Positions 4,971-7,626 of a stretch of 9,236 nt of DNA are shown piece after piece. The position numbers and the translations under genes were made by a program. Every line of letters starts with the position of its first letter. The stretch's first letter is position 1. The DNA comes from a virus (lineage: Duplodnaviria; Heunggongvirae; Uroviricota; Caudoviricetes): positions 1 to 9,236 of the IMG/VR virus record IMGVR_UViG_2636415610_000005, one strand, 5' to 3'. The notes under the pieces were generated by a model. That model did not search any database, had not been told where the DNA came from, and worked only from the letters and a program-made list of their open reading frames with translations.

Positions 4971-4978
4971 GCAACGGA
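4971..4978. repeat. Target-site duplication GCAACGGA (left copy) flanking the IS66-family element
   Basis: Exact 8-bp direct repeat with 7433..7440, immediately outside the GTAAGCGT...ACGCTTAC ends. 8 bp is the target duplication size typical of the IS66 family. Confidence 0.85.
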
Positions 4979-5004
4979 GTAAGCGTCGTCTCAGCACCGT
5001 CTGG
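4979..5004 (+). repeat. Left terminal inverted repeat of the IS (imperfect; first 8 bp GTAAGCGT match the right end exactly)
   Basis: Left end GTAAGCGTCGTCTCAGCACCGTCTGG compared with the reverse complement of the right end GTAAGCGTGCAGCAAGAACCGTATTG. The first 8 of 8 match and there are scattered matches beyond. Exact repeat length is uncertain. Confidence 0.6.
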
Positions 5005-5059
5005 CAGATCCTGAAATTCCTGAGAGAATAGTGGACACCAAATATGGTGGACGCTATCC

Positions 5060-5464
5060 ATGAAATCATTAACCGCAGTGCGTAAAAAAAGCCCTAATTA
5101 TCCCGTTGAGTTCAAAATCAAAATGGTTGAACTCTCGCATCGACCAGAGATCTCCGTAGCGCAACTCGCTCGTGAGCATGGGATCAACGATAATTTGCTG
5201 TTCAAGTGGCGCCAGTACTGGCGCGAAGGAAAACTACGTCCTCCTTCAACAACAGAAAACAACGTGCCTGAGCTGCTCCCGATAACACTTGATGCCGAAG
5301 ATGTTGTCCCTACAACCTCCCCCCGGTCACAACCTGTAGCTACTGCGACACCTGAATCACTCAATATCAGCTGTGAAGTGACGTTCCGGCACGGATCACT
5401 CCGTCTGAATGGTGCCATCAGTGAAAATATCCTGAACCTGCTGATACGGGAGCTCAAACGTTGA
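5060..5464 (+). CDS. tnpA: IS66-family accessory protein TnpA (small helix-turn-helix protein)
   Basis: 134-aa ORF with ATG at 5060. The segment ISVAQLAREHGINDNLLFKWRQ is a transposase helix-turn-helix-like motif. First ORF of the IS, and its stop overlaps the tnpB start. Confidence 0.8.
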   Translation: MKSLTAVRKKSPNYPVEFKIKMVELSHRPEISVAQLAREHGINDNLLFKWRQYWREGKLRPPSTTENNVPELLPITLDAEDVVPTTSPRSQPVATATPESLNISCEVTFRHGSLRLNGAISENILNLLIRELKR

Positions 5465-5808
5465 TCCCATTACCATCAGGGACAAAGATCTGGCTGGTCG
5501 CTGGCATCACCGATATGAGAAACGGCTTCAACGGCCTGGCGGCAAAGGTGCAGACGACGCTGAAAGACGATCCGATGTCAGGTCACGTTTTTATCTTCCG
5601 TGGGCGTAATGGCAGTCAGGTAAAGCTCCTCTGGTCCACCGGTGACGGACTGTGCCTCCTGACCAAACGGCTGGAGCGTGGGCGCTTCGCCTGGCCGTCA
5701 GCCCGTGATGGCAAAGTGTTCCTTACACAGGCGCAGCTGGCGATGCTGCTGGAAGGTATCGACTGGCGACAGCCTAAGCGGCTGCTGACCTCCCTGACCA
5801 TGCTGTAA
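5461..5808 (+). CDS. tnpB: IS66-family TnpB (small essential accessory protein; unrelated to IS200/IS605 TnpB)
   Basis: 115-aa ORF (MIPLPSGTKIWLVAGITDMRNGFNGLAAKVQ...GHVFIFRGRNGSQVKLLW...), which resembles the IS66 orfB consensus as I recall it. Initiates at TTG overlapping the tnpA TGA (TTGA), with GGGAG 8 nt upstream. An internal ATG at 5515 is the alternative start. Confidence 0.8.
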   Translation: MIPLPSGTKIWLVAGITDMRNGFNGLAAKVQTTLKDDPMSGHVFIFRGRNGSQVKLLWSTGDGLCLLTKRLERGRFAWPSARDGKVFLTQAQLAMLLEGIDWRQPKRLLTSLTML

Positions 5809-5856
5809 GCCTCTTTATCCTGGTCGACGCTGAATGAGCCTGGTAATATACCCGGT

Positions 5857-7395
5857 ATGAGCAGCTCACTTCCTGACGATATCAATGCACTGAAACGTCT
5901 CCTTGCCGAACAGGAGGCGCTGAACCGTGCCCTGCAGGAAAAGCTGAACGAGCGTGAACGCGAAATAGACCATCTGCAGGCACAGCTGGATAAGCTGCGC
6001 CGGATGAACTTCGGCAGCCGCTCGGAAAAAGTCTCCCGTCGTATCGCACAGATGGAAGCTGACCTGAAGGCACTTCAGAAAGAAAGTGATACCCTTACCG
6101 GTCGGGTTGACGACCCGGCCGTGCAGCGCCCGCTGCGTCAAACCCGCACCCGCAAACCGTTCCCCGAATCACTCCCCCGCGATGAAAAACGGCTGCTGCC
6201 GGCAGCGTCATGCTGCCCGGAATGTGGAGGCTCGCTGAGCTATCTGGGTGAGGATGCCGCCGAACAGCTGGAGCTGATGCGCAGCGCCTTCCGGGTTATC
6301 CGGACTGTACGTGAAAAGCATGCCTGTACTCAGTGCGATGCCATCGTGCAGGCCCCCGCGCCTTCACGGCCCATCGAGCGGGGTATCGCAGGACCGGGGC
6401 TGCTGGCCCGCGTGCTGATCTCAAAGTATGCAGAGCACACCCCGCTGTACCGCCAGTCTGAAATGTACGGCCGCCAGGGCGTGGAGCTGAGTCGTTCACT
6501 GCTGTCGGGCTGGGTGGATGCATGCTGCCGGCTACTGTCACCGCTGGAAGAAGCGCTTCAGGACTATGTGCTGACTGACGGTAAGCTCCATGCTGATGAC
6601 ACGCCTGTCCCGGTGCTGTTGCCAGGCAATAAGAAAACGAAGACCGGGCGGTTATGGACCTACGTTCGTGACGACCGTAACGCCGGGTCAACGCTGGCGC
6701 CGGCGGTGTGGTTCGCTTACAGCCCGGACAGAAAAGGCATCCATCCGCAGACCCATCTTGCGGGGTTCAGTGGTGTACTGCAGGCGGATGCATACGCCGG
6801 GTTCAACGAGCTGTACCGGGATGGCCGGATAACGGAAGCCGCCTGTTGGGCTCACGCCCGCCGTAAAATCCACGATGTGCACGTTCGCACCCCGTCAGCC
6901 CTGACGGAGGAAGCGCTGAAACGGATCGGCGAACTGTACGCCATCGAGGCAGAGATAAGGGGAATGACGGCGGAGCAGCGCCTTGCCGAACGTCAGTTGA
7001 AAACGAAACCGCTGCTGAAATCCCTGGAAAGCTGGCTGCGTGAAAAGATGAAAACCCTGTCGCGACACTCAGAACTGGCGAAAGCGTTCGCATACGCCCT
7101 GAACCAGTGGCCGGCGCTGACGTACTATGCAGATGATGGCTGGGCTGAGGCGGACAATAACATCGCTGAAAATGCGTTGCGGATGGTCAGTCTGGGCCGC
7201 AAAAACTACCTGTTCTTCGGTTCGGATCATGGAGGAGAGCGGGGAGCGCTGCTGTACAGCCTGATCGGGACGTGCAAACTGAACGGAGTGGAGCCAGAAA
7301 GCTACCTCCGCTATGTCCTTGACGTCATAGCCGACTGGCCGATAAACCGGGTCGGCGAACTGCTCCCCTGGCGCGTAGCACTGCCGACTGAATAA
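5857..7395 (+). CDS. tnpC: IS66-family transposase TnpC
   Basis: 512-aa ORF. N-terminal heptad/leucine-zipper-like region ([39 protein letters not shown]), then a CxxC...CxxC zinc-finger-like motif (CCPECGG...CTQCD), then a large catalytic region. This is typical IS66 transposase architecture. Confidence 0.88.
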
Positions 7396-7406
7396 CACAT
7401 CCCCGT

Positions 7407-7432
7407 CAATACGGTTCTTGCTGCACGCTTAC
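7407..7432 (+). repeat. Right terminal inverted repeat of the IS (imperfect)
   Basis: Ends ...GGTTCTTGCTGCACGCTTAC, whose reverse complement begins GTAAGCGT like the left end. Confidence 0.6.
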
Positions 7433-7626
7433 GCAACGGATAACGGTGTCTCATCATCTTTTGCTTTAACGATCTCCTGCCAGCGCAACCAGGCTTCTGC
7501 AGAAGGTTCCCGTAATACAACCGTTGCTCCCTCCCATTCAGGCACATCAACAGTTTTATGGCGAAACCCCGACATCGTTGCCAGTGCCAGATTGCGGATA
7601 TTTTTAGTCATCACATCTATCCTCAT
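7429..7626 (-). pseudogene. G: Tail assembly chaperone G, N-terminal 64 codons, truncated by the IS insertion (reads 1 codon into the IS, then stops)
   Basis: ATG at 7626..7624 overlaps the stop of the major tail gene (TAATG). The ORF MRIDVMTKNIRNLALATMSGFRHKTVDVPEWEGATVVLREPSAEAWLRWQEIVKAKDDETPLSVA ends at a TAA (7431..7429) lying inside the IS right end. Gene order position is that of lambda G. Confidence 0.75.
7433..7440. repeat. Target-site duplication GCAACGGA (right copy)
   Basis: Exact match to 4971..4978, directly abutting the IS right end. Confidence 0.85.

Follow-up and report, generated by a model that had tools for sequence, protein, structure and literature searches.

An ISEc22 insertion in the tail assembly chaperone gene G of a lambda/HK97-like Escherichia coli prophage

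Can a lambdoid prophage still make tails when an insertion sequence (IS) lies within its tail assembly chaperone gene G, and does such a lesion go back to a single event? Both questions are raised by a 9236-bp stretch of viral DNA (IMG/VR record IMGVR_UViG_2636415610_000005), referred to below as the window, which is the entire draft contig JWKE01000155.1 of assembly GCA_000812325.1. The window is filled by the tail-gene block of a lambda/HK97-like prophage, with the phage genes on the minus strand in the order HK97-gp10-like gene, tail completion gene, major tail gene (V), G, T, H, M, L, and the start of K. Gene G is split by a copy of the IS66-family element ISEc22. From all of the evidence, we consider it highly probable that this insertion was a single event that has since been inherited and that it left the prophage tailless.

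The element and the short repeats that flank it are as follows.

4979..7432, plus strand: complete ISEc22-like insertion sequence (IS66 family), 2454 bp, from a full-length ungapped match; ends GTAAGCGT...ACGCTTAC
4971..4978, no strand: left target-site duplication GCAACGGA, exact 8-bp copy
7433..7440, no strand: right target-site duplication GCAACGGA, exact 8-bp copy
5060..5464, plus strand: tnpA, IS66 accessory protein, 134 amino acids; Pfam HTH_Tnp_1 9.2e-12; NCBIfam IS66_ISRel24_TnpA 82.7 bits (cut-off 74)
5461..5808, plus strand: tnpB, IS66 Orf2 accessory protein, 115 amino acids; Pfam TnpB_IS66 9.3e-39; NCBIfam IS66_TnpB 120.6 bits
5857..7395, plus strand: tnpC, IS66-family DDE transposase, 512 amino acids; Pfam DDE_Tnp_IS66 5.2e-107; NCBIfam transpos_IS66 467.8 bits

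The original prediction, made from the letters of the window, had placed an IS66-family element at 4979-7432, bounded by an 8-bp exact duplication and running against the direction of the tail operon. All three statements hold: the coordinates are exact, with a full-length match and IS66 domains; GCAACGGA stands at both 4971-4978 and 7433-7440; and the IS genes lie on the plus strand and the tail genes on the minus strand. The comparison that had been proposed for naming the element identifies it as ISEc22-like. It aligns without gaps, at 99.2% identity over positions 1 to 2454, with copies annotated as “IS66-like element ISEc22 family,” the identity being measured against annotated genome copies in E. 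coli RefSeq. Places covering at least 80% of the element are found in 2190 of the 5426 complete E. coli genomes on which our genome counts are based. The termini, GTAAGCGT at the start and ACGCTTAC at the end, form an imperfect inverted repeat in which 17 of the first 26 positions match, including the first 8, and both carry GTAAGCG, the signature of IS66 family ends in ISfinder descriptions. The 8-mer GCAACGGA has just two occurrences in the window when both strands are scanned (4971 and 7433).

The coding content of the element is that of a complete IS66-family member. The open reading frames (ORFs) of tnpA, tnpB, and tnpC are intact, and the products score above the cut-offs of all three NCBIfam IS66 models; tnpB starts with TTG and overlaps the tnpA stop codon, while TnpC also matches the Pfam families LZ_Tnp_IS66, zf-IS66, and DDE_Tnp_IS66_C. 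At the DNA level, tnpC is identical to a gene annotated “ISEc22 family transposase” in the avian-pathogenic E. coli (APEC) strain E12049. By its sequence, then, the element is a complete copy of the known ISEc22 and apparently a functional one. With the ISEc22 copies of E. coli RefSeq it shares the length of 2454 bp, the three tnp genes, the GTAAGCG termini, and the 8-bp target duplication, and it differs from them in a patch of 19 nucleotides (nt), almost wholly synonymous, within the 3' part of tnpB. In the literature found on this element, ISEc22 receives passing mentions only.

The insertion leaves gene G in two pieces, of which the second contains a frameshift site and is followed by the T frame.

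7429..7611, minus strand: 5' fragment of tail assembly chaperone gene G, 60 codons from ATG 7611 (65 from ATG 7626), ending at TAA in the IS end
4778..4970, minus strand: 3' fragment of G, 63 codons plus TAG stop, without a usable in-frame start
4781..4787, minus strand: A-AAA-AAG −1 slippery heptamer, directly before the G stop codon
4476..4780, minus strand: T reading frame, C-terminal part of the G-T fusion; Pfam Phage_tail_T 3.5e-19

Across the junction the minus-strand G frame reads ...CCG TTA TCC GTT GCG TAA (...PLSVA, stop). TAA is the first codon that is wholly IS encoded, and the G frame therefore ends at the IS edge, in keeping with the earlier claim that it stops after one IS-encoded codon. 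On the other side of the element, the first in-frame ATG, GTG, or TTG of the 3' fragment leaves 29 codons. When positions 4979-7432 and one copy of the duplicate are removed in silico, a 128-codon ORF ending in GTT AAA AAA AAG TAG is restored. Repaired G covers positions 1 to 124 of the 124 positions of Pfam Phage_TAC_1 (E value of 2.8e-58), matches PHROG 344 “tail assembly chaperone,” and is identical in DNA sequence to an annotated intact 123-amino-acid gene in APEC strain E14033. The insertion point is at codon 60/61 of 123.

The original prediction had given the repaired gene 128 codons from a start at 7626. The restored ORF and its end at the slip site stand, but the start is likely ATG 7611, which yields 123 codons. 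The NCBI Prokaryotic Genome Annotation Pipeline (PGAP) starts G at this ATG in intact relatives, AGGA is located 8 nt upstream, and both the Pfam and the PHROG matches begin at 7611. A start at ATG 7626 is possible. The major tail stop codon overlaps that G-frame ATG in a TAATG at 7624-7628, 15 nt upstream of 7611.

A −1 slip at A-AAA-AAG would give a predicted G-T fusion of 224 amino acids. PHROG 14766, with a profile length of 224, is matched by G at profile positions 1 to 121 and by T at 129 to 220; since the profile spans both halves, relatives are annotated as exactly this G-T fusion. From these frames, T is to be read as a segment expressed only through the G-T frameshift and not as an independent gene. 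Like lambda G/G-T, and those of HK97 and TP901-1 as well, the locus combines a full-length Phage_TAC_1 region with a following Phage_tail_T frame reached by a −1 slip, and as in lambda the chaperone gene lies between the major tail and tape measure genes. Lambda slips at G-GGA-AAG, whereas the heptamer of this locus is A-AAA-AAG and adjoins the stop codon, with frameshifting predicted from the sequence. The neighboring genes T, H, M, L, and K had been described as intact. This is true of H, but T is not a separate gene, and of K only the first ~55 codons are contained in the window because the latter is a whole draft contig.

Genomes without the element at this site reveal its unoccupied form. 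A 1400-bp stretch across the repaired junction has 100% identical counterparts in at least 25 complete E. coli genomes. At least 80% of it is covered in 891, and in each of these the annotation shows an unbroken “phage tail assembly chaperone” with “tail assembly protein T” after it. The repaired window aligns with APEC E14033 over 6756 bp without gaps and with a single mismatch (window position 3461), and the empty site of E14033 reads ...CTCCGCAACGGATAACGG..., with a single GCAACGGA. The two comparisons proposed earlier, of the repaired gene with its homologues and of sibling genomes at the empty site, thus bear out the insertion: the junction is colinear with intact homologues, and the G fragments are one gene in relatives; many sibling genomes have one GCAACGGA, and no longer native repeat contains the 8-mer.

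The occupied junction is present in 1 of the 5426 complete genomes, that of E. coli O78:H4 APEC E12049 (NZ_CP126952.1), in which PGAP annotates two G pseudogene pieces flanking tnpA, tnpB, and an ISEc22-family transposase, the 5' piece being labeled [quoted passage not shown] Between the window and E12049 the flanks show 0 differences over 6764 bp. The insertion site, orientation, and duplication are identical, while E12049 differs in having a canonical ISEc22 tnpB and no IS2 in the head-closure gene (see below). The lesion is therefore already known as an annotated pseudogene in RefSeq; it is not a novel finding but an ordinary step of prophage decay. The right junction, with IS sequence attached and with flanks that are 100% identical, was also found in contigs from SRR14629638 (L004) and ERR3506805 (L012), so that the same insertion occurs in at least four assemblies (E12049, the window contig, SRR14629638, and ERR3506805).

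The age of the insertion can be judged from what followed it. At the right end of the window there is a trace of another IS.

9219..9236, plus strand: left terminal repeat of IS2 (IS3 family), at which the contig ends; from divergence from relatives and 32-mer matches

These last 18 nt diverge exactly at 9219 from E12049, E14033, and SRR14629638 and are common to ERR3506805 only. A 32-mer that includes 10 further nt, from positions 1 to 10 of the ERR3506805 contig, is found at 18167 places in 4474 of the 5426 genomes, and in APEC O78 an “IS3-like element IS2 family transposase” of the same orientation follows it after ~65 nt. As judged from the 18 nt in the window and the 10 nt of the ERR3506805 contig, on which the call rests, 9219-9236 is the left end of IS2, and the contig ends at 9236 because IS2 lies there. 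A mosaic recombination breakpoint at 9219 was considered and dropped, the diverging sequence being the IS2 terminus. IS2 interrupts the head-closure gene, which has 112 codons, behind codon 99 and is not present there in E12049, E14033, or SRR14629638. Since the ISEc22 insertion is common to carriers with and without IS2, it predates IS2, with decay continuing afterwards; we infer the order ISEc22 in G, then IS2 in the head-closure gene.

A further difference among the carriers lies within the element itself.

5637..5803, plus strand: mosaic patch within the 3' portion of tnpB, differing by 19 substitutions from the same-site IS copy in APEC E12049; from sequence comparison

All differences between the IS copies of the window and E12049 are confined to this one 167-bp stretch. 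Of the 19 substitutions, 16 are at third codon positions, and a single amino acid is changed (P90Q). Over the full 241 bp compared, no match above 94.6% was obtained among the matches listed from complete E. coli genomes and none above 93.7% among those listed from PLSDB plasmids, and an exact 36-mer from it had no match among GTDB species representatives. The segment of the patch at 5679-5803 is similar to another element of the IS66 family, of the type found in L018; a donor of the remainder was not found, also when ten loci encoding an identical TnpB protein were compared. The pattern is suggestive of gene conversion with another member of the IS66 family as donor.

The original prediction had called the insertion recent, with no decay since. 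The flanks do match those of intact alleles almost perfectly, but the junction is shared by at least four assemblies, the IS copy carries the 19-nt tnpB patch, and IS2 arrived later. The best explanation is that the insertion occurred once in an ancestor and was inherited by a small lineage; that it is young by nucleotide substitution, yet predates the split of the carrier strains; and that it also predates the gene-conversion-like patch in tnpB, if the patch is real.

What would the loss of G mean for the prophage? In lambda, recruitment of the tube protein depends on G and G-T, which also bind the tape measure protein, and the two are needed in the correct ratio (PMC5009743). When translation of G or T is stopped in TP901-1, capsids without tails are produced, and the G mutant also forms aggregates, proposed to consist of the tape measure protein (PMC4493119). 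Here ISEc22 transposed into codon 60/61 of G in the HK97/lambda-like prophage of an avian-pathogenic-type E. coli, duplicating GCAACGGA. The 5' fragment of G now ends at the TAA within the IS end, and what follows the element, namely the remainder of G with its A-AAA-AAG site and the T frame, is separated from any start codon. Because one fragment is truncated and the other lacks a start, neither G nor the G-T fusion can be made. Both proteins are required for the solubility of the tape measure protein and for bringing in the tail tube protein, and the prophage is therefore expected to form DNA-filled heads without tails. Exceptions would be the supply of G/GT in trans by a co-resident lambdoid prophage or repair of the gene by recombination. 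Loss of G/GT should thus block tail assembly, with no infectious particles formed by the prophage alone.

The element had also been thought likely to be polar on T and H. For T this is not borne out: T is made only within the G-T fusion, and it is therefore lost outright, not through polarity. For H the claim is unsupported. Terminator-like hairpins between 4400 and 7700 on both strands showed no excess over shuffled sequence, nor did a promoter and terminator scan of the IS region exceed its shuffles. Lambdoid late operons are transcribed under Q antitermination, and Q is among the genes of the E12049 prophage. Some polarity on H is still conceivable.

Several points weigh against a single inherited insertion that leaves the prophage tailless. 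E. coli genomes hold up to 4 places matching a G/T-region query, and G/GT of another lambdoid prophage could complement the lesion in trans. The four carriers are a count of assemblies, which may not all come from independent isolates. The tnpB patch might have arisen not by gene conversion but during assembly, through a path into a paralogous copy of the IS66 family. The annotation of the E12049 prophage shows frameshifts in the integrase and DUF968 genes, which may be true lesions or artifacts of assembly, and G is perhaps not the only or the first defect. The terminase, DUF968, and integrase irregularities of E12049 are at 30442-30762 and 36028-37076 of L001 (NZ_CP126952.1) and at 18137-19187 of L023. 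Chromosomal irp2 and ybtX near this prophage are also annotated as broken, and some of the E12049 prophage defects may therefore be assembly indels; the integrase and DUF968 pseudogenes were left out of account.

Other accounts of the locus differ in what they make of the same data. If the site were a hot spot, with independent ISEc22 insertions into the same 8-bp target and in the same orientation in different strains, the 19-nt patch by which the same-site copies of the window and E12049 differ would fit, as would a set of draft contigs (L003 and L006 to L011) that have ~96% identical flanks and end at the same G codon. These contigs, however, were picked by the query itself, through its exact 60-amino-acid product; they hold no IS bases, and L006 and L007 end in ...GCGG, as in the intact gene. 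They were rejected as evidence for a hot spot. Although the site is available in 891 genomes and a full-length ISEc22-like element in 2190, the junction was seen in one, and the window and E12049 agree at every position of 6764 bp of flank. The site is probably not a hot spot, and recurrent insertion is a very unlikely source of the shared junction. Misassembly, in which the IS was wrongly threaded into a draft contig while the real G is intact, might be suspected from a draft contig that holds an entire 2.45-kb repeat and from a tnpB patch that is otherwise unseen; but both junctions and the exact 8-bp duplication recur in a complete genome from another source (E12049), the right junction recurs in two independent run assemblies, and a clean target-site duplication would not arise in this way. 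We regard this account as scarcely credible.

That the prophage is still functional, with the insertion acting as a leaky or reversible brake, is somewhat less remote, albeit improbable. Up to 4 G/T-region places per E. coli genome would allow G/GT to be supplied in trans, and the intact IS ORFs and perfect 8-bp repeats would permit precise excision. Precise excision of IS elements is generally rare, however, and in the window strain the head-closure gene is also broken by IS2, so that restoring G alone would be insufficient. A more far-reaching proposal, decidedly improbable in our estimation, is that the insertion has been kept for the benefit of the host, locking in cargo genes and preventing virion formation, or that precise excision between the 8-bp repeats makes it a reversible switch; its smaller point is a tnpB patch derived from an IS66 relative that is not contained in the complete E. 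coli genomes, PLSDB, or the GTDB representatives. Against these alternatives, one inherited ISEc22 insertion with loss of tails is the explanation that we favor.

IS insertions in the morphogenesis genes of lambdoid prophages are commonplace in E. coli. The locus resembles the IS629 insertions of O157 prophages in that an IS lies in a morphogenesis gene of a well-preserved lambdoid prophage and that several IS insertions build up in one prophage, as is generally known for IS629; it differs in the IS species (ISEc22 and IS2) and in the pathotype, which is avian and not Shiga toxin-producing E. coli. For predictions of prophage content and induction in this APEC-type lineage, the prophage is to be scored as defective. 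ISEc22 in G followed by IS2 in the head-closure gene offers a clean, datable decay series, and the ISEc22-G junction could act as a lineage marker. When such insertions are weighed, the “T” ORF is not to be judged as an independent gene. Beyond annotation, the finding has little significance.

The genes on either side of the interrupted G are both intact.

7626..8381, minus strand: major tail tube gene (V) with C-terminal Ig-like domain, intact; PHROG 158 “major tail protein” 9.7e-110; Pfam Ig_2/Ig_3
1202..4435, minus strand: tape measure gene H, client of the G/GT chaperones, intact; Pfam TMP_3, Phage_HK97_TLTM, Tape_meas_lam_C

The one mismatch of the repaired window to E14033, at 3461, is also the single difference between the two copies of H. 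A scan of the whole window against Rfam found no RNA family. In the 40-nt gap between T and the tape measure gene, within the late operon, there is a GC-rich terminator-like hairpin followed by a T-run (AACCGCTTCGGCGGTT TTTTTT; window 4452-4467, minus strand). It is native phage sequence, the empty-site loci carrying the same hairpin, and it could set the ratio of G/GT to H transcripts or stabilize the mRNA.

The prophages of E12049 and E14033 have their tail and head modules in common and differ in the lysis and early regions; the small-terminase gene is 321 bp long in E12049 and 483 bp in E14033. The cargo of the E12049 prophage comprises a gene for an Ail/Lom outer-membrane protein, tRNA genes, and an AAA-ATPase/RloB pair. 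This pair of an AAA-family ATPase gene and a RloB-family gene is located in the early region (L001 38964-40600; L023 27196-29127), is lacking in the prophage that occupies this attachment site in E14033, and looks like a defense-type cargo module.

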